Origin: a virus
Direction: 5' to 3' (one strand)
DNA: 64,000 nucleotides
IMG/VR virus record: IMGVR_UViG_3300050821_009780
Coordinates: 1-64,000 of that record
Of the stretch, positions 20,228 through 53,326 are shown one piece after another (position 1 is the first letter of the stretch; the number at the start of each line of letters is the position of its first letter). Below the pieces are notes generated by a model that had not been told where the DNA came from, did no database searches, and was given only the letters and a program-made list of their open reading frames with translations. A program made the position numbers and the translations under genes.

Positions 20228-20464
20228 TAAATCGGTGAAGTGCCCGGCGTTGGCCTGCCGGTAGTGCGCCAGCTCCGCCGGCAGGTCGGCCGCGTAGTAG
20301 ATGGCGTCAGACGGGCAGGCGGGCTCGCACGCCCCGCAGTCGATGCACGACTGCGGGTTGATGAACATCATGCTGGTGCCCTCGGCCAGGCAGTCCACCG
20401 GGCACACGTCCAGGCAGGAACGGTCCAGGCTGTCCGCGCAGGCGGCGGTCACCACATAGGTCAC
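20228..20464 (-). CDS. 7Fe/dicluster ferredoxin (FdxA-like)
   Basis: MTYVVTAAC..DRSCLDVCPVDC..CIDCGACEPACP. The domain ends at ...HFTD-TTA; the formal stop is at 20105. Confidence 0.85.
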
Positions 20465-30793: not shown

Positions 30794-33700
30794 TCACCCC
30801 CTTCCGCTGAGGTAGGCAAGCTTGTTGCTCGCCCGGGTGATGGAATCAGAAGGCTTCTCGGGGACCGGATTAATAATGTTGACATCGCCGGTGACGTTGA
30901 CGCCGACCCGCGACTGCGCGGCCCCGGCCTCGGACAGCGACCGGGACGGCTCGGCCTTGCGGGTGCTGCGGTCCATCCCCCGGCCGAACGCGTCGGGCAG
31001 GGCCACCGGCATGTAGCCGTTGGTGCCGGGCACCACGATGGAGAACCGGCCGGCCACGTCCCGCAGGGTGGGCGTCACCAGCCCGCCCCCGGCGAAGCCG
31101 AGCCCGCCGTCGCCGGGGGAGACGGGCGTGCCGGGGCCGCCGAGAATCACCTCGGGGGTGAGGTTCTGCGGCGCGACCGTGACGGGGTAGGTGGTGCCGA
31201 CGGGACCGGCGGGGGCGGGGGTGCCGCCGCCCCCGCTGCTGCTGCCGAACGCGTACTTGGTCAGCGGGCTGACCGGGCCCCAGCCGCCGGCGTTGCCTGC
31301 CTGCATCTGCCAGTCCACGGCGGTGCGGTCCCCGTAGATGCCCAGGGTGGTGGGGGAGTGGACGTGGCCCTGCCAGATCTTGCCGCCGTGCACGTCGTCC
31401 ACGGCCAGCATGTAGTCGGTGGCGCCGGAGACCGGCGGCCACTTCCAGGTGACCTGGTCGCCCGCGTTGGACACGGCCACGTGGCCGGGGAAGGTCTGCG
31501 GTTCCCGGCCGGCCGAGGAGGACCCGGTCACCCCGGTCAGGGTGTAGGCGTGCACGGCGCTCGGCGGCCCCCAGCCGCGGCCGTTCAGTGCCTGCAGCTG
31601 CCAGCTGACGATCTTGTGGCCGTCGAACGCGAGGGTGACGGGCGACGACACGAAGCCCTGCCACAGCCCGTCGGTCGGGCCGGCGGTCACCGTCAGCCAG
31701 TAGGCGGTGGCCCCGCCGACGGGCGGGAACTTCCAGGTGACGGCGTAGCCCTTGTTGGTCACGGTGACCGGGCCGGGCGAGGTGCGCGGCGCCCCGGCGG
31801 GGGTGGCGTAGCCGGGCTTCGGCGCGGTCGTGCCGGGCGGGGACGGCTTGGGGTTGACGGGGGGCGGGGTGACGGGGGGCGGGGGCGGCTGCTTGGTGGC
31901 CGGGGCGGGGACGGTGCTGGCGATCCCGCCGCTGGCCAGGCCGGGGATGATCAAGCCGCCGGCGGCGTTGTTGGGGATGCCGGCGATGGACGCGGCCATC
32001 GCCAGGCCGGCCGGGTGCACGTCGTTGACCCCGGCCCGCTCCACCCCGGTATCCCAGTCCTGGGCGGCCGAGTTGAGCGAGGTCTCCCCCTCCATCGTGG
32101 TGATCGTGGCCTGGTCCCCGCTGGAGTTGACGAAGGCGATGATGGCCGGAAGCTGGGTCTTCATGCCGCCGCTGAAGTCGGCGTCGGAGATGGCGGAAGG
32201 CGGGGTCCAGCCGATCAGGCCGCGCCCGCCGGAACCGGACGCGGCCGGGTTCCAGCCCGACTCGCCGTCAATGGACGCCACCGCGCCGGCGGCGGCGACC
32301 TTGTGGCCGCCGAACAGGTTGGCCAGCAGGTAGCTGTAGCCCTCCTTGGCGTTGGCCAGGTCGGACCCGGTGGCCCCGCCGGCCGCTGCCGCCGCCGCGG
32401 CGGCCTTGGCGGCCTGGGCGGCGGAGATGGCCGCCGTGAGCGCGGCGGTGTTCAGGTTCAGGTTGACGGCGAAGGCGGCGCCGCCGGAGGCCAGCCCGGG
32501 CACCATCAGGGGCACCATCATGCTGGACCCGTCGCCGCCGACCGCGCCGCCGCCGGCCCACTGCTGACTGGCCGCGATGCCCCGGCTGCCGGCCCCGAGC
32601 CAGGAGTCGGCCTGGTTCAGGCGGTGCAGGTAGCCGGGGCCGTACTGCTGCTCCAGCGCCATCCGGGCGGACTTGCGGACCACGAACTCGCCAGGCATGA
32701 GCATGGCGTGCACGCTGTCGTGCTCCCCGGCCCCGGCGACGGAGCCGTGCTGCGCCTGGCGGCTGGCCCCGATGGGGCCGCCGGATGCCTTGACGGTGAC
32801 GGTGACGTTGCCAGACGCGTTCTTGATGCCGGTGTCGATGTCGTTGGTGATGGCGGTCTCGGCACCCTGGGCGGCGTTCCCCAGCGCGGTGGTAATCGCG
32901 GTGCCTGCCTTGGTGACGGCAGCGGGCAGGGTGCTGTTGAAATAGGTATTCATCGGGGTCTCGACCTGACCCACGAACACCAGCATGGCCGAGGCCCAGG
33001 CGGTGCCCCAGGTCGAGACCATCTTGGTGAGGTAGCTGTTCATGGTGACGGTGAAGAACAGCCCGAGCGGGGTCTCCACGGCCTTCTGGAAGTCGGCGGC
33101 GGCGTTGGACCAGGTAGAGGTCCACAGCGCAGCCGTCTTGCTGAAGTACCCGGCGATGGTGACGGTGAAGAACAGCCCGAGCGGGGTGATCACGGCCTTC
33201 TGGAAGTCGCCGGCGGCGTTGGACCAGGAGGTGTTCCACAGCGAGACGGCCTTGTTCAGGTACCCGGACATGGTGACGGTGAAGAACAGCCCGAGCGGGG
33301 TCTCGACCGCCTTCTGGAAGGTGCTGGCGGCGGTGGACCAGGTAGAGGACCAGAGCGCGCCCGCCTTGCTCAGGTAGCCGGCCAGGGTGGAAGTGAAGAA
33401 GGTCTGGACGGGGGTGACGACATCCTTGGCGAAGCTGGTTCCCGCCCCCGTCCACAGCGTGCTCATCTCGGTGGTGGCGCTGCCCGCCCACCCCTTGAGG
33501 CTGCTGGTAAAGAACGTCTGCACGGGCGTGGCGACGTCCTTGGCGAAACTGGTTCCCGAGCCGCTCCAGAGCGTGTTCATCTCGGTCGTGGCCGAGCCGC
33601 TCCAGCCCTTGAGGCTGGAGGTGAAGAAGGTCTGGACCGGGGTAACGACATCCTTGTTGAAGCTGCTCTGCGCGCCGGACCAGAGCGTGCTCATCTCGCT

Positions 33701-36700
33701 GGCGGCGCTGCCGGTCCACCCCTTGAGGCTGGAAGTAAAGAACGTCTGGGCCGGGGTAACGACGTCCTTGGCAAACGCGCTCTGCGAACCGGACCACATG
33801 GTGGTCATCTCAGAGCTGGCGCTGCTGCTCCAGCTCTTGAGGCTGGAGGTAAAGAACGTCTGGACGGGGGTGACGACGTCCTTGGTGAACGCCCCCTGGG
33901 AACTCGACCAGGCGGCGCTGACCTCGGTGCCCGCGCTGCCGGTCCAGCCCTTGAGGCTGCTGGTAAAGAACGTCTGCGCCGGGGTGACGACATCCTTGGT
34001 GAACGCGGCCTGCGAGCCAGACCAGGCGGTGCTGACCTCGGTGCCCGCCGTTCCCGCCCACCCCTTGAGACTGGAGGTAAAGAAGGTCTGGGCGGGGGCG
34101 CTGACATCCTTGGCGAACGCGCTCTGCGACCCGGCCCAGGCGGCGGTCACCGAGCTCTGCGCGGTCTTGGCCCAGCCGGGGAGCTGGCTGGCGAAGAAGG
34201 TCTTCGCCGGATCTGCGACGTTCTTGGTCAGGGCCGAGCCGGAAGCGGTCCACAGGGCGGCGACCGAGGCCTGCGCGGCCTTGACCCAGCCGGGGAGCTG
34301 CCCGGTCAGGAGGTTCTTGACCGGGGTCGTCAGGTCGGCGTTGAGCGAGGTGCCGGCCTTGGTCCACATGCCGGCCAGGATGGTGGAGTCCGCCGCGACG
34401 TCCGCCTTGAGCACGCCGCCGAACGCCGTGTTGAACTCCACCCCCATGAGGGTGGCGGCGACCTTCCACAGGTTCGCAATCTGCCCGAGGGCGGTCTGGA
34501 ACTCCCCGACGAGGCCGCCGCCCGCGAAGTGCTGCACGCCGCCCTTGACGGTGCCCGCGGCTGCGGGCTGCGGACCCTGCTTCTTCGCCTGCTGGGCGGC
34601 CATCTGGGCCGGGGTGAGCTGCGCCGTCGTCCCCTTGTGCGCCTGGTTGAGCTGGTCCAGCACGCCGGGGCCGTGCTGCGCCTTCAGCGCGTCGGCGGCG
34701 GGCTTCTGCAGGACGAACTCGCCGGGGGTGAGCATCGCGGGCACGGTGTCGCCCTGGCCCTGGCCGGGGACGTGGCCGCCCGCCGCCTTCTTGACCGGCG
34801 GGGGAGGGCCGCCGCCGGGGAGGCCGGGGAGGCTGCTCCCCGCCCCGGCCGGGATGGAGCCGAAGAGCGTGTTGAAGCTGGCCGCGAAGTTGGCCGCCGC
34901 CTGCGCGCCGGCCTTCGAGAACGCCTGGGTGAGCGGGTTGGTGTTGGCCTGCGGCGTGATGATGGTCTTGTTGATGGTGGCGATTGCCTGGTTGCTGAAG
35001 CCCAGCGAGTGGAGCAGGGTGTCCAGCTGCGTCAGGTCGGTCTTGGGACTGATGTTCAGCGAGTTGAGGAAATCAATCTGCTGCTTGTTGAGGTTCAGCT
35101 TGTCGTAAGTCTTTTGCAGGTTGTCCTGGAACGTAACGGTGCTTGCCCCGACGACCAGCCCGTCGATAATCTTGATTTGCGCTGTGGTAAGACCCAGGTT
35201 GCTCAGCAGCTTGTTAACCGACTGCAAATTAGCACCCGGCTTAATCTGCATCTGGTTGATTTTATCGATTATGCCCTGGGGAAGACCGAGGTCATGGAGA
35301 ACGGTGTTCAAGTCGTTCTGGAACGGGGTCATATTCGGGTTGATAACCTGAGCATTGATTTTCCCGATTTCCGTCGGGGTCAGCTTCAGGTCGGACAGCA
35401 TTTTATCCAGCTGGGTCAGGTCGGTCTTGGGCGTCAGCTGGAGCTTGTCCACCGCCTGTATCTGGGCCGGGGTCAGCCCGATCTGCTTGAAGAACGTGTT
35501 CCAGGCGGTGAAGTTGGTCCCCGGCCCGATGATCAGCTTGTTGATGGCGGCGATGTTCTTCTGCGATATCCCGAGGCTCGACAGCCAGGCATCGTAGACG
35601 TGGAAGTCGGTCTTCGGCCCGATCGTGAACTTGTTGATGGCGGTGATCTGGGCCGGGGTCAGGCCGAGCTTGACGTAGTAGTTGTCGAAGGCCTGCGCCC
35701 CGACCGGCGGCGCGATGACCATTGCATCGATCTTGGAAATGGCGGCCGGGGTCAGGTGCAGCTGGCTGAGCAGCTTGTTGATGTCGGTAAGGTTGGCGCC
35801 CGGCTTGATAACCAGCGCGTTGACGGCGGATATCTGCTTGGGAGTGAGCTTCAGGGTGTTGAGGTAGGCGTCGATGGCGGTCGTGCTGACCGGGACGTGC
35901 ATAATGAGCTGGTTGATAGCGGCGACCTGCGGCGGAAGGAGCCCTATCTTCGCCAGCATGGCGTCGATGGCGGTCACGCTGGTGGTCGGGGCAATCCGCA
36001 GCTTGTTGATCGCAGTTATCTTCTGGATGGACACGCCCGTGTGCGCGGCCAGCTCGTCGATTCCGGCCCAGTCCACCTGGGGCTTGATGACCTGCTTGTT
36101 GGCCGCGACGACGTTATCCGACCAGAGGGTCAGCGCAGTCTGCCGGGCCACGCCCATCGCGCTCAGGGTGGTCAGGAACTCGGCCTTGGCCTGGGCCATC
36201 CCCGTCGGGGTGGTCCCGTACACGGCAATCAGCGCGTTGGCGATGGCGTTGGCACCGGTGATGTCCTGGGGGGAGATGATCCCCTGCTTGAGCTGATCCT
36301 GGGCCGAGTGGATGGTCGTCTCGAAGTTCGCGACGGCCTTGGTCATGCCCGGCATGTTGACCAGCGCCGCGCCGATCGCCTGGTTGAGGTCGGTGTTGAC
36401 GGCGGCAGCCAGGTTGATGGTGTCCTGCTGCAGGTTGGACGACGAGGTCTCCAGGTACCCGACCTGCTTGTTGAGGTCCGCCGTCGTCTTGGACGCCTGC
36501 TGGTTGCCGCCCGACCACTTCACCAGGGCCGCGTAGGTGTCCGCCCCGGTGTAGCCCATCTGCTGCGCCAGGGCGTAGGCGGCGTTGGTCGCCTCCTTCG
36601 AGCCGTCGCCCTGGGCCAGCAGCACGTTGACCATGTCCTGCCCGGCGTGCTGCAGGGAGCCGTAGGACGCGGCGGTGTTGCCGGCGGCGGCGTTCTGCAG

Positions 36701-39700
36701 CTGGAGCTGGCTGTAGAGTCCCTGCGCCGCAGTGGCGTTCTGCTCCCAGGACTGGCGCAGCGTGAGGCTGTTGGCGTTCAGCCCGGTCATGGACGCGCCG
36801 GCCGCCTTGGCGTTCGTGCTGACGGTGTTGATGCCCGTCAGGAACGTCTCCAGCTTGGTCTCGCCGCCGGTGACCATGGTGTAGAACTGGGTGAAGTCGC
36901 CGGTGAGGGTGGTGATCTGGCTGTTGGTGGTCTCGCTGGCCAGGGCGACGGCGTCGATGGAGTTGCCGACCTGGTTCATGTGAGTCGAGACCTGGTAGCC
37001 GGCGACCCCCATGTTGGTCCAGCCGGTGACCAGCGCGTTGACCTTGCTTATCTGGACCGACATGCTGTCGGTGACCTTGACCCCGGCCAGGTCCATCAGG
37101 GCGAACGCCTGGTCGCCGGTCACCCCGAACTTCTTCATGCTGTACGAGACCGTCTGGATGGCGGCGTCCCACCGGTCGTTATCCGCGACCAGGGCCGCGT
37201 AAGCGGCGCCGCTCTGCGCCTTCAGCTGCTGGAACGACCCGAACAGGTCGGTGATGGCGCTCTGGAAGTGCCCCGAGGTGATGTCGCCCCAGAAGCTGAC
37301 GGCACCCCCGGCTCCCGTCTGGTTGACCGGCTGGTTGAGCTCCTGCCGCAGCACGCCGTACTGCGTGCCGAGCTTCTGCATGTCGGTCTGGAGCTGACTG
37401 AACCCCTGGGCGGCGTTGAGGTTGTTCAGCTGGGTGTTCATGGCGGAGATCTCGGCCGGGATCGCGCCGCTGGCCTTGTTGAACTGGTAGAACTCGTAGG
37501 CCGCGCCGCCGACGGCACCGGCGATGGCGAGCCAGGCCCCGGCCGAGATGCCGGCCAGCGCCCCACCGATCTTCTGGATGGTGCCGCCGAGCCCGGCCGC
37601 CTCCGGCTCGGCGTCCTTGGCAGCGCCGCCCAGCTTGGCGACGCCCGACTCCAGCTGGCTCACGTTCGCGCCGCCGACCAGGGCCATGGAGGCGGTGGCC
37701 TTCTCCACGCCGCCCAGCCCGGACATCGCGGCCTGGGTCTCCGGGGTAATCTTCCCCAGGTCGGCCGCCAGGCCCTCGGCGCTCTTGCCGGATGCCGCGA
37801 CGGAGATGGCCGCGGCGGCAGCCTGCTTGTCGGTCAGCCCGAACGCGTCGGCCAGGGCCTGGACATCGCTGTTCTGCGACGTGACCTTGACCATCTGGTC
37901 GTAGGTCAGGCCCAGGTTCCCGGCCATGGCCAGGGCGGCGCTGTCGCCCTTGGCGAACAGGGTGCCGATGTTCTCCAGTTCCGGGGTGAGCTGCCCCATC
38001 TGGATCAGCTTGGCGTTGGACGCGCCGACCGAGCTGGCGAGCCCGCCGAAGACGTTGCTGCCGCCCGTGATCTTGGCGACCAGGCCGCCGAACTGGGTGA
38101 TGAGGGTGCCCGTGTACCGGGTCAGGTCGATGAGGGCGGTGGAGAGCAGCCCGCCGTAGTGGACGACGGCGAAGACGGCGATGCCGAAGGCAATCACCTG
38201 CGGGCCCATGGCGTTCATGGCCTTGGCCAGCAGCGAGAAGGCGTAGGCGAGTCCCTCGAAGAGCAGCTCGGAGACGTGGGTCATCTGCCCGGCCTGGAGG
38301 AACTCGGCCCCGATCTTGAGGATGGAACCGCCGATGGAGCCGAGGATCTTCAGGTCGTTGACGGCGGTCTCGATGAGACCGGACAGCTGCCCCGAGTGGG
38401 AAGTGAGCGCCTGATCTACCTTGATGAAGGTGTCGGTGATGAAGGTGCCGGTCTTCTGGGCAACCCCCTGCATCAGGCCGAGGACGCTGGTGAACGTCTG
38501 GCCGAACGCCTTGATGGGCGCGGTCTTCTGGGTCAGGGCGTCGATGGCGGCCCCGTACATGGTGACCACGGTCGGGGCCATGGCCGCCTGGATGGACCGG
38601 ATGGTCACCGGCATGGGCTTCATGGTCGAGTCGAGCGTGCCCATCTTGGTGCTCAGCGGGCCGATGTGATCGGTGCCGAGCACGTCCGCGCCGGTGCCGA
38701 GGGCGTCCAGCGCGGTGTGCAGCCCCTGGACGTGCGCGAGCAGGTCCAGGACGGACGGCTCGGCGGCGACGCCGAACGCGCCGAGGGCGGTGCCGGCGGC
38801 GATGACCGCGGGCACCAGGACGATGAAGAAGTCGATCAGGGTGTGCAGGGCGACGGCCCACACGCTGATGGTGGCGGCGAACGGGATGCTCTTGAACGCC
38901 CCGCCGAACAGGGTCAGGTCCTTGGTCCAGCCGCCCCAGGCGGCGATGGCGAGGTTGACCAGGCCGGTGGTCTTGGCTACGGAGGCGCCGCCCTGGTCTA
39001 CGGACTGCGTGGCGCCATCCTGCGCGTTCTTGACGAGGAGGGCGGCGGCTGCCGCGTTCTTGGCCGCTTCGGCAGCGCTCATCGTGGACTGGCCGAGCTT
39101 GTCGTAGCTGCCGGAGGCCCCGCTGACGGCGTCCCCGGCCTGCTGCGCGGCCAGCGCCTCGGCGACCATGCTCTTGGCGAACTGCGCCGCCGTCGGCGGC
39201 CCCTGGGCCTGGAGGCCGAACCAGTGCTCGTACTGCGCGGCGTTGGACTCCAGCGCAGCACCGTTCGCGTTCAGCGCGGCATCGGCCTGCTGCACCACCG
39301 GGATGAACCGGGCCATGGACAGCTCGCCGGACTGCACGGAGCCGACGAACCGGGTCCAGTCCACGTCGTTCGCGGCACTGCCGACCTGCTTCAGCGCGGC
39401 GGCGTCGGCCATGGCAGCGGCGGCGTTGGCGTTGAACCCCTTGGCCGAATCGTCGGCGTCGGTGCCGGCCGTCTGGGCGGCCTTTCCCGCGGCCAGCAGC
39501 GCGGCCTGGGTGTACAGCTGGCGGTTGCCCAGGTCGGTGGTGGCCTGGCCCATCTTCGCCAGCTTGGCGGACGCCTCGTCGGCCGACATGCCGGTGGCCA
39601 GGAACGCGTCGGCCAGCTTCCTGGCGGCGGCGGCCTGGATGCCGGCGGAATCACTGGTGAACTTGGCGGCGTTGGAGGCCCGCGCGGCCTCGTAGTCGAA

Positions 39701-41781
39701 GGAGTCGCCCGCCTGGTGAATCTCGTCGGCGGCACCGTGCACGGCCCCGCCCAGCCGGGTCCAGGCGGCATCGTCGTTAGGGTTGGGTGCCGACTTGTCC
39801 ACGTCACTGCCCAGCGTGGACAGCACGGCCTCAGCCTGCCGGACAACAGGGATGAACCGGGCCATGGACAGCTCGCCGGACTGCACGGAGCCGACGAACC
39901 GGGTCCAGGCGGCATCATCCGCCGGGTTGGGCGCGGCCTTGGCCAGGGCGGCGGCTTGCTCGGCCAGGGCGGCGTCGGCCTGCTTCACCACCGGGATGAA
40001 CCGGGCCATGGACAGCTGGCCGGACTGGACCAGAGCGATGAACTTCGCCCAGTCGTCGTCATCCGCCGGGGTGGGGACCGGGATGTCCGGCGGAGGCCCG
40101 CCGCCGCCCCCGGCGTGGCCGGCCGTGACCAGTTCCTCGGTGACCAGCTCGGTGACGTGATCGTTGGCGTGAAGGCGGGCCTGGAACGCCATCCACTCGG
40201 CGATGGCCTTGTTGATGCCCGTCAGCTGGACGGCGGTCTTGGCGTAATCGGGAACCTCGTTCAGCTTGGCAATCCAGGCTTCCAGCTGGGCCTTGGCCTG
40301 GTCGTCGGTGAACCGGGCGGTGGTGTCGAGCACCTCGGGGACGATGCCCAGGTCGCGGAGCCAGATCTCCAGGTCTCCCTCGGCCGCTGCCGCGCTGAAG
40401 ACGGCGTTCACGGTGACGCTATCCGGGAGCGCCTCCAGCTGGGCTATCAGGGCGGTGAGATCGGCCTTGGCCTTCTCGTCGTCGAAGACCACCCGGACGG
40501 TCACCTCGGCGGGAACGGACCGCAGCTGGGCCAGCAGCGCGGCGAGGTCATCCTTGGACGCCCGGTCGTTGAAGACCGCGTTGATGGTGACGTTCTCGTT
40601 CTCCGGGGTCTTGCCGACCGCGATAAGCGACGTGGTGATGTGCTCGGGGATGCTGTGGAGCACGGACTTCCACAGCGCGACGTCGGCCAGGCCCTGCTCC
40701 GGGTCGGCCTTCAGCTCGGTGGTAACCGAGGTCGGCACCCCGGCCAGGGCGGAGTTCAGGGCCTGCGCCCCGGCGACGCTGCCCTCCTCGCCCAGCTGGG
40801 TAACGGACTTGTGGGTACCCTCGATCGCGTTGTAGTAGGCGAGGGCGGCGTCGGTGTTGGACTTGTACAGCGCCGCCCGGCGCTCCAGCTCGGCGTTGAA
40901 GTCACGGTACAGGGCGGTCTGCTTCTGCAGGTACTGCAGGTACTGGTCGGCGGTGAAGTACCCGGCCCACTCGGCACGGTTCATGAGGAGCTTCTGGGTG
41001 TACTCGGTCTGGCGCCACGCGTAAGCCTGCTGGGGCGTGGTGAACATGAGCCAGCGCTGCCGGTTCAGCAGCGTCTCGTACTCCAGCTCCTTGCGCATGT
41101 CGGCCAGGTGCGTGCCCATGTCCGACCGTCCGCCGAACAGCGACTGCTCGTTGTACCGCTTGTAAGCATCCGACGTCGTGTTAACGGCGGCGGTCTCATC
41201 CTTTAGTACACTTATTTCTTCCTTGCGGACGGAGATAAGCCGCTGCTCGTCCGATATCTCGTCAACAACAGCCCGGTCCAGCTTCTCCAGCGTGCTGGTG
41301 ACATTCCGGTACGCCTCGTCGGTCGCCGTGACCTTGTTTACCGTCTCGTCCCGGACGGTAAACGAAGAAATAGTATCCTTGTACCGCTTATAGGACTCAC
41401 TGGCCAGGTCAACGGCCGACACTTCTTCTTTAAGTCCGTCAAGAACAGAACTGTGGTAGCTCTTGTAAGAAGCAGCAAGGGCCTCAATCGAATTCTTCTG
41501 CAGCTTCAGCGACTCGATTGAGGTGTCGCTGTAGTCCTTGGATGCCGCCGCCAGCGAGTCAAGTGCAGTCCGCTCCTCGGTGAGCTTGCTGATCTCATCC
41601 TTGTGAGCGTCTACCAGCTTCTGGTACTCGGCAGTCTGCGCCTTAGCGGCGTCGCCTCCGGCCTTTCCCAGTGCCTCCAGGGCAGCCTTAGCCTCGGCTG
41701 CCTTGCGCATGAGGTCGCCGAAATCGGCAATTGCTTTATAAAGGACAACTCAGGAGGTAACCAGTATTCCTCTCCGGCCAT
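30794..41781 (-). CDS. Tape measure protein (~3,650 aa) with a phage-tail-lysozyme-like domain and two FN3-like domains; 5' end frame-interrupted
   Basis: Lies after the chaperones and is Ala-rich helical with 38-aa Trp/Phe repeats, two DTVPAMLTPGEFV-type motifs and a GESGWNP..GRGLIGWT lysozyme-like motif. The main ORF is 30794-41710; the likely N-terminus MAGEEYW from ATG 41781 is in another frame. Confidence 0.9.
32990..34330 (-). repeat. Tandem ~114-bp (38-aa) repeats in the tape measure gene
   Basis: The unit F-x-KDVVTP-x-QTFFTSSLKGW recurs at ~114-nt spacing (e.g. 33421, 33650, 33764, 33878, 33991, 34105). Confidence 0.85.
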
Positions 41782-41845
41782 AACTCAGCCGCCAGGGAAT
41801 ACTGCAACAGGGTGGAATTCACCCCGGCTCACCTCCCTCCTCCAC

Positions 41846-42487
41846 TCAGCCGACCGTCTTGATGTCGAACGACTGCTTCCCGTGCCCGTCCGTCCAGCCG
41901 CTCCGCAGGGCCTCGTAGGAGCCCTGCGCGTTCTTCCGGGCCGCCGCCTCCGTGTCTCCCTGGAACACCCACGCCGGGAGCACGTCGTCCGCCTCCGGCC
42001 CGTACTGCACCAGCTTGTCCAGCCCCGGGTCGGGGGGCGGGTTCAGCCGCGGGTCGTCGCGGTAATCTGCCGCGACCACCGGGCCGCGCATCTCCTCCAG
42101 CTCCCGCTCCTCCGGGGTCAGCTTCCGGACGCTGCCGGTTCCGTCTATGGAAATCGCCCGCACCGCCTCCAGCAAGGGGTTCTCCTTCCTGCCCCAGTCC
42201 ACCAGCCCCAGGCCCGCCTGCGCGGCGACGAACAGCGAGACGGTCTTGGCCTGCCACTCGGCCAGGCTGGCCCGCTCCTTCTGCTCTAGACGGCGGCGGG
42301 TGCCCGCCGCTTCCGCGCACTGCCGGAGCCGGCAGACGGGGAGATCGAGGAGGTACTCGTCGCTCCATCCGTACTCGGCGCTGAGGAGGTCGAAGAGGCT
42401 GGCGTAGGCTCCGGCAAGTGAAGATCCTGGGCTTCGGGTGCCGTCTCCGCCTGGCCCATCCCGGTGGCCTTCTTCGCCACCGTCCAC
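41846..42487 (-). CDS. Tail assembly chaperone, frameshift-extension (T) segment
   Basis: Overlaps the chaperone gene in the -1 frame; FDLLSAEYGWSDEYLLDLPVCRL motif; lies directly before the tape measure gene. Confidence 0.7.
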   Translation of the reverse strand: MDGGEEGHRDGPGGDGTRSPGSSLAGAYASLFDLLSAEYGWSDEYLLDLPVCRLRQCAEAAGTRRRLEQKERASLAEWQAKTVSLFVAAQAGLGLVDWGRKENPLLEAVRAISIDGTGSVRKLTPEERELEEMRGPVVAADYRDDPRLNPPPDPGLDKLVQYGPEADDVLPAWVFQGDTEAAARKNAQGSYEALRSGWTDGHGKQSFDIKTVG

Positions 42488-42948
42488 AGGGCCCGGAGCT
42501 TTTTTCCCAGGGACTGCAGCTCGGGTGCCTCGTTCGCGACAATCACCTCGAACAGCGCGAGGGTGTCCCCGACCTCCGGGTTAAACAGCTCCTCGTTGAA
42601 CCGGTCCCACAGCTCCTGGTTGTGCTCGGACTCCTGCTTGGTGATGTGCTGCGGCTTCTTCTCGCTCAGCCCGGCGGGCTTGCACATGGACTGCAGGAAC
42701 GCGACGGTCTCCTGCTCGGCGTCGGGGACGGAGACCAGCAGCAGGCCGAGCAGCTTCTGCCCGAACGCGGCCTGGTCCTCGTTGAAATCGAGCTGGGCGA
42801 TGGCGGGTCCGGCACCGCGGGTGAGGATGCGGAGCAGCCGGAACATCTGCCGGGTCTTCAGCCGCACCACCTCGACGGGGAACCCCGACTCCAGCTTGAC
42901 GGTGACTGCTTCCGGATCGATTCTGTCCAGCTCGGACTCTGCTGCCAC
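42286..42948 (-). CDS. Tail assembly chaperone (G)
   Basis: Located between the tail tube and tape measure genes; slippery sequence GGGAAAAAAG at 42508-42499. Confidence 0.75.
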   Translation of the reverse strand: MAAESELDRIDPEAVTVKLESGFPVEVVRLKTRQMFRLLRILTRGAGPAIAQLDFNEDQAAFGQKLLGLLLVSVPDAEQETVAFLQSMCKPAGLSEKKPQHITKQESEHNQELWDRFNEELFNPEVGDTLALFEVIVANEAPELQSLGKKLRALWTVAKKATGMGQAETAPEAQDLHLPEPTPASSTSSAPSTDGATSTSSISPSAGSGSARKRRAPAAV

Positions 42949-43066: not shown

Positions 43067-43699
43067 CTAGATGACCGCGCCGGAACCGAACTGGCCGATT
43101 TCGGCGGCGGTGAAGGCACCGGTGTTGTTGCCCGGGTAGGAGACCAGGCGGCCGAGCCGGTTGCTGGTGTCGGTGCCGGTGAACGAGCTGCCCTGCTCGT
43201 TCGTGGACGAGAACAGCGCCCTTGCGGAGATTGATACGGAAAGTCCCGTCTTGTACGAGGGTCCCGTGAAGTTGAAGGGCTGGAACTGGCACTTGTACAG
43301 CACGAAGTCCAGCGTGCGGATCGCGCCGCCTGAGTCCTTCGACGGCACCCGCAGCGCCAGCGGCTGCGTCGGCTGGTTCATGGAGTTCAGCGTCCACAGC
43401 GCGACACCGTAGTAGTCGTTCGGCGTGCCGCCGGACGAGGCCACCTGGGTGCCGGTGATCAGGGCGATCGTGGCGAAGGGGACGTAGCCTTCTTCAATGG
43501 TGATGTTGGCGAAGTTGATCCAGAAGTGCTCAGAAAGCACCACGTCGTCGCCGGTGTTCTCGAAGTTGCCCTGGTCGGTGGCGATTGAGCCGTTGCGCAC
43601 CCCGTAGATGCTGGCGTTCTCGGCGCCGGTGCCCTGGGTCAGGATCGCGGCGTGGCTCAAGGAGAAGCCCTCGAAATAGAGGGCATTAGCAGCAGTCAC
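43067..43699 (-). CDS. Major tail tube protein
   Basis: Position upstream of the chaperones; IYGVRNGSI..ENTGDD..LRVPSKDS..DFVLYKCQF. Confidence 0.75.
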   Translation of the reverse strand: MTAANALYFEGFSLSHAAILTQGTGAENASIYGVRNGSIATDQGNFENTGDDVVLSEHFWINFANITIEEGYVPFATIALITGTQVASSGGTPNDYYGVALWTLNSMNQPTQPLALRVPSKDSGGAIRTLDFVLYKCQFQPFNFTGPSYKTGLSVSISARALFSSTNEQGSSFTGTDTSNRLGRLVSYPGNNTGAFTAAEIGQFGSGAVI

Positions 43700-47731: not shown

Positions 47732-47986
47732 TTAAGCGGTGGCACTCCGCCTGCTGCGGTGCAGCTGCCTTTCCCTCGGCGTCGTGCCTCCCCATATTCC
47801 ATACGCCTCCGGGTAGCCGATGGCGTAGTCCCGGCATGCCAGCCGGACCGGGCACGCACTGCACACCGCCTTGGCGGCGATGACCCGCTTGCGGTAGCGG
47901 CGGTCGGTGAGGTCGGTGAACTCGATGAAGAACATCTCGGTCGGCAGCCCGGTGCAGGCCGCTCCCTCTGCCAGGTGCTGCAGCAT
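47732..47986 (-). CDS. whiB: WhiB-family Fe-S transcription regulator
   Basis: AAC..FF..AKAVCSACPVRLACRDYA..GIWGGTTPRER (four Cys plus the GIWGG turn). Confidence 0.9.
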   Translation of the reverse strand: MLQHLAEGAACTGLPTEMFFIEFTDLTDRRYRKRVIAAKAVCSACPVRLACRDYAIGYPEAYGIWGGTTPRERQLHRSRRSATA

Positions 47987-48503: not shown

Positions 48504-49808
48504 CTACCGCACCGGGACGGGGCCGAGTTCCTCCTCGCGGCGGCAGGCCATGGCGGTGTCGTAGACCTGCGCGCCGACGCCGTTGCTGGTCACCTCGTCG
48601 CGGATGCGGCGGAAGAGGTTCTCCACCACCACCGACCAGTCGCACAGCTTCGGGATCAGCTCGGCGGCCTTCTGCCCCTTATCCCTGGCCTCGCTGCGGT
48701 GCGTGTAGATGTGCCAGATGGTCTCGGCGAGGTGCTCCACGCTGACCTTGGCATCGTGCGCGCCCCACGGGCAGTATCCGAAGGTGGCGCCGAGCTTGTA
48801 GTCCAGCGGGTAGGCCCAGTCCCCGCCCATCCACATGGTGTGGCCGCCGAAGTTGGTGGCCGCGACCGCCCCGGCGGTGGACATGAACTCCAGGGCGGGC
48901 AGGTTCTTGCCCTCGCCGCGGCTGGGGGCGAGCAGGCAGTGGCTGGCGGCGTACATGTCCTTGACGCCCTGCACGTCCAGGGACGACACGAACACCTTGA
49001 TGCCGGCGTGCGCGAACGGCAGGTTCAGCTCAGGGAACAGGGTGCCGGGAAGGCTGGTGTGCAGCGCGAGGCGGGCATCGGCGAACGCCCCGCCCTTCTC
49101 GTCCTTGAGCTTGTGCCACGCCTCGATGACGAGCCACGGCTGCTTGCGGGCGTTGAGCGCCCCGTGCATGAGGAACTGGAACCGGTCACTGTGCCAGTCG
49201 CGCTCGACCGGGCGCCACAGCGAGGAGTCGTAGCCGCCCTGGAGGATGCCGGACTTGACGGTCTTGGGGATGAACGGCGCGAACGAGGCGAGGGACACCG
49301 GGTCGTAGCCGAGCACCAGATCGTACCAGCGGAGCCGCTCGCGGAAGCTGGACTTCTGCTTGGCGTGCGGGTACAGCCCGGAGGCCGGGGGCTTCCGGCA
49401 GTTCCGGCAGCCGGGGACGCCCAGCTCGTTCTTGCCGTTCTCCTTCAGGTGCCTGGCGCACGGGCGGAGGATGGGCACGCCATCCTCGCGGAACTCCGGC
49501 GGCGGGGCGAACTCCCACATGGACCAGCCGACCGCGACCCGGGCGCTGGCCCGGGCCTCGCGGGTGATGAGCAGGTGGTCGGGGTCCCAGTGGTTGATGA
49601 GCAGGTCCCACGGGCCGTACAGGGTCTTGCCGAACAGCGGCATGAGGTCGGCCGGGATGGGCACATCCAGCCAGGTGGGCTGGACGTACACGTCGCAGCC
49701 CCAGCGGTGCAGCGCGCGGACCAGGCCGAAGCCGTCGTTGCCGTATCCGGAGTACTGCGAGAAGGGGGCTAAAGCCTTAACACAGACCTTCAAAGGCCGG
49801 TTAAGCAT
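48504..49808 (-). CDS. GT-B (GT4-like) glycosyltransferase
   Basis: SGYGNDG, WSMWE, GALNARK and LLAPSRGEGKNLPALEFMS (EX7E motif). Confidence 0.85.
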   Translation of the reverse strand: MLNRPLKVCVKALAPFSQYSGYGNDGFGLVRALHRWGCDVYVQPTWLDVPIPADLMPLFGKTLYGPWDLLINHWDPDHLLITREARASARVAVGWSMWEFAPPPEFREDGVPILRPCARHLKENGKNELGVPGCRNCRKPPASGLYPHAKQKSSFRERLRWYDLVLGYDPVSLASFAPFIPKTVKSGILQGGYDSSLWRPVERDWHSDRFQFLMHGALNARKQPWLVIEAWHKLKDEKGGAFADARLALHTSLPGTLFPELNLPFAHAGIKVFVSSLDVQGVKDMYAASHCLLAPSRGEGKNLPALEFMSTAGAVAATNFGGHTMWMGGDWAYPLDYKLGATFGYCPWGAHDAKVSVEHLAETIWHIYTHRSEARDKGQKAAELIPKLCDWSVVVENLFRRIRDEVTSNGVGAQVYDTAMACRREEELGPVPVR

Positions 49809-49814
49809 TGGGCA

Positions 49815-50402
49815 TCACCTCTTCGTCGCGGCCAGATAGGCCGCTATCTCGTCGGAGAACTGCTCGTACCAGCCCAGCGAACCATTGCACTTCGTGCACA
49901 ACAGTCCCCGGACACACTTGCCGCAGGAAGTAGGGCCTGAGCAACAGCGCCTATCGTGATCAACAGCAAAGTGCATGAACACGAACTTAGAACCGCGACG
50001 CTCGCCCTCAGCCATCTCCTGCAAGGACCGACTGCATATCCGACAACGTCCTTGCTGCTCGTCGTACATGCGCCAGTAGTCATCAGGATCTATGTTGAAC
50101 TGACGACGCAGCTTCCGCTCCCAGCGGGCATCAGCTTCCCGGGCTACCCGCTCAGTATCACGAGCATGCCAGGAAGCCTTCGCGTACTCGCGCCTACAGT
50201 CCTTGCACGGCACCATGAGACGACCATCTGGATACTTATAGAAGTCGTCTCTATCCTTCTCACGAGTGCACTGATAGCACGTCTTACGAGTCGGACGACA
50301 GGAAGGCCCGCAGTGCTTCTGAACTGAGCCTGTCGGCTGAAACTCTTCTCCGCAGCCAACGCACACCCTAGTAGGCCACTTAAAGTCAGGAGGTCTAACC
50401 AT
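49815..50402 (-). mobile_element. Free-standing endonuclease VII-family homing endonuclease inserted at the glycosyltransferase 5' end
   Basis: QQGRCRICS..AVDHD..CC..SCGKCVRGLLCTKCN..LG; lower GC; flanked by duplicated RPLKVC coding sequence. Confidence 0.85.
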
Positions 50403-52985: not shown

Positions 52986-53326
52986 AACGTCCCTACCAGG
53001 ATGCCGGTGTCGGTGCCGTCGCCGGCAACCCAGGTGAACTCGCCCTCGGCCCCGACCGGCCGGTGCATCATGCAGCGGCAGCAGTAGGTGGCCCCGTAGA
53101 AGCCGGGCCGCCGGGCGTACGTCTCGCACAGCGCCAGGCCCATGGTGGTGACCGCGCCGCACTCCGGGTCGTGGTGGAGGTAGGAGCGGTACACCGGGCG
53201 GACGAACCCCTTGGCCCGCTCCTCCTCGCTGAGCACCAGGTACTTGCTGTTCATGCCCTTGGGCTCGCGGTCGGCCCCGTGACCCAGCTCCGGGTCGTCC
53301 GGGTCGGTGGTCAGTCCCGTACCCAT
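52985..53326 (-). CDS. Zn-binding hypothetical protein ending at a TTA codon
   Basis: YLVLSEEERAKGFVRP..H..CG..TTM..ETYAR.P.FYGATYCCRC..H...LVGT-TTA. The formal ORF reads on into the tail terminator gene. Confidence 0.6.

Follow-up and report, generated by a model that had tools for sequence, protein, structure and literature searches.

UUA-triggered translational bypassing as the probable link between two reading frames at the 5' end of a phage tape measure gene

In the virus recorded in IMG/VR as IMGVR_UViG_3300050821_009780 the tape measure protein is specified by two reading frames that ribosomes probably connect by translational bypassing at a UUA codon, a reading drawn from sequence and strongly supported by comparison with related phages. 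The DNA analysed (the window) is the first 64 kb of this 143.5-kb record, a genome rated complete by CheckV, with 69% G+C and nearly all its genes on the minus strand. At the 5' end of the tape measure gene, seven codons specifying MAGEEYW are separated from the long frame that follows by an 11-nucleotide (nt) block that begins with TTA and ends with TGA. The original prediction, made from the letters alone, had read the minus-strand sequence of this junction base by base, and exactly. The elements of the site are:

41761..41781, minus strand: tape measure coding segment 1, ATG GCC GGA GAG GAA TAC TGG, specifying MAGEEYW
41763-41761, minus strand: take-off codon TGG, the last codon of segment 1
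41750..41760, minus strand: 11-nt block TTACCTCCTGA, read as non-coding, with TTA (41760-41758) first and TGA (41752-41750) last
41752-41750, minus strand: proposed near-cognate landing triplet TGA, at the 3' end of the block
30794..41749, minus strand: tape measure coding segment 2, from GTT 41749 (VVLYKAIADFGDL, then Met 41710) to the stop at 30796-30794
41708..41710, minus strand: internal ATG, the gene-caller start of the long open reading frame (ORF)

The long ORF lies directly after a G / G-T pair of tail chaperone frames and has PHROG tape measure matches, which identify it as the tape measure gene of a siphovirus. Counted from Met 41710 it specifies 3638 amino acids (aa; 30794-41710); the whole frame of segment 2 comprises 3651 codons, and the joined product would be 7 + 3651 = 3658 aa. 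The frame of ATG 41781 stays open for 56 codons, to 41611. TGA 41752-41750 is the last in-frame stop upstream of the long ORF and, as had been predicted, stands exactly at the end of the gap. No GGAGG-like site precedes ATG 41710, which had rightly been described as lacking a Shine-Dalgarno (SD) sequence, and none directly precedes ATG 41781. Upstream of ATG 41710 lies GCC GAT TTC, whose GAT is the conserved Asp codon of an A/G-D-F motif.

Searches with the N-terminal region yielded 11 large homologues (P0002-P0012) and 68 representatives, and alignment-based scans of IMG/VR and JGI metagenomes supplied 42 further loci; consensus N-terminal peptides were aligned to the DNA by a dynamic program permitting nucleotide skips. 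Neither DNA nor protein comparison with GenBank phages gave a match, GTDB genomes gave none, and an exact-pattern scan of IMG/VR for the single N-terminus also came back empty. Aligning the N-termini of related tape measure proteins, a check proposed with the prediction, showed a MAGEEYW-like segment joined directly to a VVLYKA-like segment in P0003, P0010-12, L025, L007 and L002; homologues lacking the first segment, which would have counted against the idea, are not what the uninterrupted relatives present. P0003 runs from MAGEEYW straight into SVVYRAVADF, and P0010-12 are similar. The closest relative, L025 (61% identity), has no block and reads ...GAG TAC TGG GTT GTC CTT TAT AAG..., and the window minus exactly 11 nt is this uninterrupted sequence, codon for codon: removing the block does leave a natural tape measure N-terminus. 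The block is likewise absent at this position in L007 and L002, the Trp being joined, as in L025, directly to the next three residues; in L002 these are VVL, but two other blocks lie further on.

The 13 codons before Met 41710 are conserved in relatives. Database entries for P0006 and P0007 start at the Met equivalent to 41710, those for P0004 and P0005 at an earlier internal start, and in the DNA upstream of these truncated calls short blocks occur at or near the same place. L003, L004 and L005, from three independent SRA assemblies, have a homologous 8-nt block, TTACCTGA between TGG and GTC, at the position of the 11-nt one.

Comparison of 35 distinct related 5' ends, 21 gapped and 14 ungapped, revealed rules common to the interruptions. 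They comprise 22 distinct blocks of 4-16 nt, at no fewer than 8 codon positions within the first 25 codons. In-frame TTA comes first in all 22, directly after the last codon collinear with uninterrupted relatives, and the length is divisible by 3 in none (P about 1e-4). The triplet at the 3' end of the block resembles the codon before TTA: 10 are exact copies (binomial P about 5e-13), 4 are synonymous, 6 match at two of three positions and 2 match more poorly. In examples of such landing copies GGT is followed by TTACCCAGGT, GTC by TTAGGTC, AAG by TTAAG and TAT by TTAC. At the near-cognate landing predicted for the window, UGG and UGA match at two of three positions, with the preceding C also shared; an exact copy of the take-off codon is not present. 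Blocks at the same site differ in length, 14 nt in L009 against 13 nt in L017 and 11 nt in the window against 8 nt in L003; because the first two differ modulo 3, a fixed frameshift is excluded. Several blocks recur in separate IMG metagenomes (L013/L015/L040; L010/L032; L021/L046/L047).

The codons on the two sides of the blocks bear the marks of translation. Upstream of the last block, pairwise comparisons, in which pairs overlap, gave 109 synonymous and 15 nonsynonymous differences, a count that takes in the inter-block segment of L009-type loci. This segment has no start codon, so it is readable in that frame only after recoding, and its inclusion in the count argues against both decaying remnants and simple internal initiation. 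The MAGEEYW segment itself shows 2-3 synonymous and no nonsynonymous differences from L003, L006 and L025. By these comparisons both flanks are under purifying selection, that is, evidently translated. The suggestion that this gene may need a programmed hop thus gains support from the 22 TTA-led blocks, from the landing signature and from selection on both flanks.

The leading codon of the blocks is one that the genome otherwise shuns. In-frame TTA occurs once in 16,495 confidently coding codons of the 143.5-kb genome (chosen by codon-usage score) and not at all in the 3,639 codons of the tape measure gene, which has 33 out-of-frame TTA triplets. The downstream tape measure codons of the relatives, 37,931 in number, include a single TTA. 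In actinobacterial hosts the codon known for being limiting is UUA (PMC10732093), and no tRNA genes were found in the 143.5-kb phage genome.

A potential RNA hairpin adjoins the take-off codon on its 5' side:

41762..41804, minus strand: RNA hairpin, with its 5' arm (CAGUAUUCC..) in the leader and its 3' arm (..GGAAUACUG) ending inside the take-off codon

The tape measure AUG sits in the apical loop of this hairpin (41804-41762), which has z -1.9 when folded as a 60-nt segment. All eight loci with a block after the Trp have a hairpin whose 3' arm ends in the take-off codon (z -2.5 to -6.0), whereas it is absent from loci without a block there (z -1.5 to +2.1). Most of the other gapped sites also have a hairpin abutting the take-off codon, most with z -1.4 to -6.1, while equivalent positions in ungapped relatives have mean z of +0.1 to +0.4; at two-block loci the first block forms the 5' arm of the hairpin for the second take-off. 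Base pairing is supported in two clades by one compensatory change apiece, both falling at the same pair (U-A versus C-G; UAU/GAA versus UAC/GAG), and by a compensatory switch between GAUCGC/GCGAUC (L009, L013, L017) and AAUCGC/GCGAUU (L031, L045), the latter read directly from the sequences as the automatic alignment had mis-registered that pair. There was no Rfam match at the locus. An SD-like sequence, GGAGAGG, lies 6-12 nt 5' of the take-off codon. Block positions 41751-41757 (minus strand) read ACCUCCU, identical to the anti-SD core of the 16S rRNA 3' end; they could pair with GGAGAGG, which lies seven codons upstream, a pairing not used in the minimum free energy fold.

Several observations weigh against bypassing or temper its support. 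The UGA landing triplet, in the window and in L003, matches UGG at only two of three positions, and 8 of the 22 blocks have neither an exact nor a synonymous landing copy; the 3-nt repeats that flank many blocks could be in part insertion scars rather than selected landing sites. Many of the blocks share ancestry, such that the P values overstate their independence, about 10 insertions being clearly separate. The hairpin covariation comes from few sequences, with one double change per clade, and the 131-nt leader region as a whole is not unusually stable (z -1.1), only the local hairpin being so. Generous as the P values are, the block pattern is not marginal.

The gene is preceded by a leader with its own translation signals:

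41832..41843, minus strand: SD-like run GGAGGAGGGAGG, just 3' of the TGA (41848-41846) that closes the tail chaperone T frame; also conserved in L003, L006 and L002
41736..41822, minus strand: SD-led leader ORF, from GTG 41822, 28 codons, ending TTA TAA at 41741-41736

An in-frame TTA of the leader ORF, at 41783-41781, overlaps the tape measure ATG (TTATG). Homologous leader ORFs end in TGA 7 nt past the tape measure start in L003 and L006, and in TTA TGA in L009-type loci; ungapped loci without the 40-nt leader have an SD sequence 5-9 nt before the tape measure start itself. This arrangement suggests that the tape measure start is translationally coupled to the leader ORF. No sigma-70-like promoter or intrinsic terminator was found. 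A possible extra hop at 41770-41786 (minus strand) would take off from GAG 41786-41784, cross a 14-nt TTA-led gap, TTATGGCCGGAGAG, and land on GAG 41772-41770 to resume at GAA, joining the SD-led leader ORF to ...EYW. Such a leader-to-gene hop fits the rules, but we estimate a chance of about 10% that it does so by accident, and the leaders of L003 and L006 end in a real stop; we set it aside as speculation only.

Taken together, these elements can be assembled into a mechanism; that a hop takes place, how efficient it is, what the hairpin contributes and what purpose it all serves are inferred from sequence. Ribosomes would start at AUG 41781, probably delivered there by coupling to the SD-led leader ORF (GUG 41822), and translate the MAGEEYW codons before stalling, when the P site would hold peptidyl-tRNA-Trp on UGG and the A site the almost unused codon UUA. 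With the tRNA for UUA scarce or absent, the peptidyl-tRNA would release UGG; the mRNA would slide by 11 nt, probably helped as the 5' hairpin, which reaches the take-off codon with its 3' arm, forms again; and the tRNA would re-pair with the near-cognate UGA. Decoding would then resume at GUU 41749, yielding a 3658-aa protein with an N-terminus like those of ungapped relatives. For T4 gene 60, a proposal exists that re-forming 5' mRNA pairing pushes the ribosome forward (bioRxiv 10.1101/2024.12.09.627546), and by analogy the 5' hairpin may act likewise here. The hop could serve as a gate on UUA-tRNA supply, as a limit on tape measure dosage, or as protection from a homing enzyme of the endonuclease VII type.

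Were there no recoding at all, the block would be a tolerated frame-breaking insertion and the protein would start at Met 41710, leaderless or weakly, leaving the upstream codons as remnants or a tiny peptide. The gene callers' choice of the equivalent Met in P0006 and P0007 agrees with this, and so would the GAT upstream of ATG 41710 if it marked a leaderless start, but that GAT is simply the conserved Asp codon. ATG 41710 has neither an SD sequence nor a promoter-like site before it, and remnants could not be expected to preserve, through 22 blocks, the leading TTA, the terminal landing copy and the avoidance of lengths divisible by 3. The predominance of synonymous differences upstream of the last block, even where inter-block segments have no start codon, makes such a start improbable. 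Slightly less probable still is ribosomal frameshifting by -1 (or +2), at the TTA or beyond it, which would bring some block-encoded residues into the protein. A hungry A-site codon stimulates frameshifting, the two frames here do differ by -1/+2, and an A AAG sequence lies a few codons downstream; yet the target frame is closed by the TGA at the block end, so the shift must come after it and add at least 4 foreign residues, where the W-x3-YKA spacing shows no length variation in ungapped relatives. Related blocks would require shifts of +1, +2, +4 and others, differing at one and the same site (14 versus 13 nt), no slippery heptamer or constant offset is common to the blocks, and the matching landing triplets would have no role.

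It is very improbable that the block arose as an error of assembly or sequencing, or that it is a lethal mutation of a defective genome which metagenomics happened to sample: the source of P0001 is this exact contig only, but 11 nt without a homopolymer is an atypical error, CheckV rates the genome complete, and both the 8-nt homologue in three SRA assemblies and the recurrence of other blocks in separate metagenomes speak for real sequence. We give as little credence to removal of the block from the mRNA before translation, by a cleavage-ligation or editing step guided by the adjacent hairpin. Conserved hairpins do flank the blocks, and sequence data would look alike for removal in RNA and for skipping by the ribosome; nevertheless the in-frame TTA and the landing copies in codon register are translational features, Rfam has no match, and we know of no system in bacteria or phages that removes segments of 4-16 nt from RNA.

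Returning to bypassing, its candidate sites coincide in part with a putative mobile gene. In 8 of the 21 gapped loci, and in none of the 14 ungapped ones, the tape measure gene is immediately preceded by a gene for endonuclease VII (PF02945; Fisher P = 0.012). In L003 the endonuclease VII homologue occupies positions 2126-2464. The endonuclease gene is absent from the tape measure locus in L017, L006, L002 and the window; L017 retains a remnant of its 3' end, and the leader that follows it in L003 is retained in L006, L002 and the window. Two endonuclease VII genes lie elsewhere in this genome. Just downstream of an endonuclease VII gene at 49815-50402, an in-frame TTA (49772-49770, minus strand) forms codon 13 of a 434-aa glycosyltransferase-like ORF (48504-49808), after a leader of atypical codons; the codons that follow it contain TCGCAGTACTCC, a 12-mer also found in the L003 tape measure leader behind its endonuclease VII gene. 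In T4 the bypass insert and the mobA endonuclease form one cassette, in which the insert protects its site from nicking and the endonuclease is often lost (bioRxiv 10.1101/2022.08.31.505936, and Bonocora et al. 2011 as cited there).

When the whole genome was scanned for TTA with a landing match, out-of-frame TTAs inside genes and cases at junctions were all that emerged, and no further internal hop was convincing. Nowhere is a TTA flanked on either side alike by strongly coding sequence in its own frame; where clearly coding sequence runs into a TTA, the place is a gene end or a junction (52987-52985, 17001-16999, 20230-20228 and 41783-41781, minus strand). At 52987, 17001 and 41783 the TTA overlaps the ATG of the next gene as TTATG, at 20230 the next ATG is 8 nt downstream, and the upstream frame remains open, without a stop, for 28-218 codons after these junction TTAs. 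Between genes TTA may be a stop-like or a hop signal.

By analogy with T4 mobA and gene 60, it is conceivable, though we hold it only tentatively, that the tape measure 5' end is a hot spot at which a mobile endonuclease VII cassette and TTA-led blocks move together, the blocks breaking the DNA target of the endonuclease while leaving the protein unchanged, and that UUA is more generally a stop-or-hop signal in this genome, since in-frame TTAs after clearly coding sequence sit at gene junctions (TTATG). The grammar of such a hot spot may differ from that of T4 and be simpler, needing a hungry UUA, a copy of the take-off codon to land on, and a hairpin that adjoins the take-off codon on its 5' side.

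The module around the site is a standard siphovirus tail module:

43067-43699: major tail protein, by PHROG match
42286-42948: tail chaperone G, by PHROG tail chaperone match
41846-42487, minus strand: tail chaperone T frame, entered by a -1 shift, with its TGA stop at 41848-41846

A classic -1 slippery sequence, G GGA AAA AAG, occupies 42508-42499 (minus strand), codons 146-148 of chaperone G, and the coding signal switches into the T frame there. The joined tape measure (30794-41781), at 3658 aa, is far longer than its homologues (about 2000-2900 aa), and by the usual rule of 0.15 nm per residue predicts a tail of about half a micrometre. Part of it is an insertion of about 126 residues (residues about 43-168; about 41209-41584, minus strand), found in none of the aligned homologues; it coincides with a low-GC patch (0.49-0.54 versus 0.69 for the genome), and for this reason suggests recently acquired sequence. 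A WhiB-family gene at 47765-47965 (minus strand; PF02467, 61.7 bits), a marker of actinobacteria and their phages, and the base composition (69% GC) point to an actinobacterial host. A further motif is repeated in intergenic DNA, just 3' of stop codons and 5' of genes:

genome positions 89712, 56584 and 29891 (the last two inside the window), minus strand: motif CCCGATTAC

The precedent named with the original prediction, a UUA-associated bypass proposed for a Streptomyces phage terminase gene, does exist. Smith et al. 2013 (cited in Antonov et al. 2023, PMC10732093) put forward UUA-mediated bypassing for the large terminase genes of the Streptomyces phage phiHau3 and of two prophages, and UUA-led blocks of 10 and 7 nt are described in the phiHau3, StrepC.1 and S. 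catenulae terminase genes (PMC10732093). In 2023 the phiHau3 type received support: a full-length product was made in Streptomyces, mass spectrometry identified a junction peptide in E. coli, and introducing a shifted-frame stop codon into the block did not lower the yield of full-length product. The accompanying survey of terminases found blocks in 3 of 100 genes, at 4 sites, with no mention of tape measure genes, and the authors considered UUA-mediated bypassing to be largely overlooked (all PMC10732093).

The tape measure site resembles that of phiHau3 in its short frame-breaking block led by an in-frame UUA (10 or 7 nt there, 11 nt here), in belonging to a high-GC actinophage that otherwise avoids UUA, in flanks that are adjacent in relatives, and in lying in an essential late gene; the signals proposed for phiHau3 are a landing codon, a nearby stem-loop and an SD-like sequence, and the hairpin and GGAGAGG are present here. 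It differs in that the gene is a tape measure rather than a terminase, in an unrelated uncultured clade of roughly 125-150 kb; that the first 25 codons hold blocks of 4-16 nt at no fewer than 8 positions, with as many as two in one gene; that the proposed landing triplet is here a stop codon, UGA, near-cognate to Trp; and that the start codon sits inside the putatively stimulatory hairpin, behind a leader ORF, with endonuclease VII associated.

With T4 gene 60 it would share the take-off of a peptidyl-tRNA and its landing on a matching codon, and also its neighbour, a homing endonuclease gene that stands free beside the bypass and in many cases is gone although the bypass is kept. T4 gene 60 differs in its 50-nt gap with a take-off stem-loop inside it, the UAG stop that follows the take-off codon, a signal from the nascent peptide, a single fixed site and a host among the Proteobacteria; the 11-nt gap, the sense codon after take-off and the structure 5' of the site set the present case apart from cassettes of that type, and sequence homology to T4 gene 60 or the mobA NTE was not found, nor any Rfam match to it. 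The trigger here is instead a sense codon with a presumed limiting tRNA, and protection from the endonuclease is for this site an argument by analogy.

Hungry-codon bypassing in E. coli and the 'byps' of Magnusiomyces mitochondria (refs 47-52 and 58-59 of PMC10732093) likewise involve a slow or unassigned A-site codon and a slide to a matching downstream codon, and the byps resemble our blocks in that many short inserts are tolerated within coding sequence. The E. coli events are low-level and not programmed, and the byps are 27-55 nt long, GC-rich, spread over many genes and without a single trigger codon, unlike the blocks described here. The case thus belongs to a known but rarely seen kind, UUA bypassing, in a new gene and a new uncultured clade, and with a larger natural set; its new traits are the hot spot at the 5' end, the UGA landing, the hairpin abutting the take-off codon and the link to an endonuclease.

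Programmed translational bypassing is among the rarest decoding events known; apart from the cases of T4 gene 60 and yeast mitochondria, support for its UUA-triggered form comes from four sites, spread over three terminase genes. The 22 natural variants, with their ungapped controls, make its rules readable and testable: the trigger codon, the tolerance of landing mismatches up to and including a stop codon, the 4-16 nt range of gaps and the requirement for a 5' hairpin. There is a consequence for annotation also, gene callers having truncated these tape measure genes at the internal Met or an earlier internal start (P0004-P0007). The association with endonuclease VII raises the possibility that phages have met homing endonucleases with bypass blocks more than once, independently in those of Proteobacteria and of Actinobacteria.

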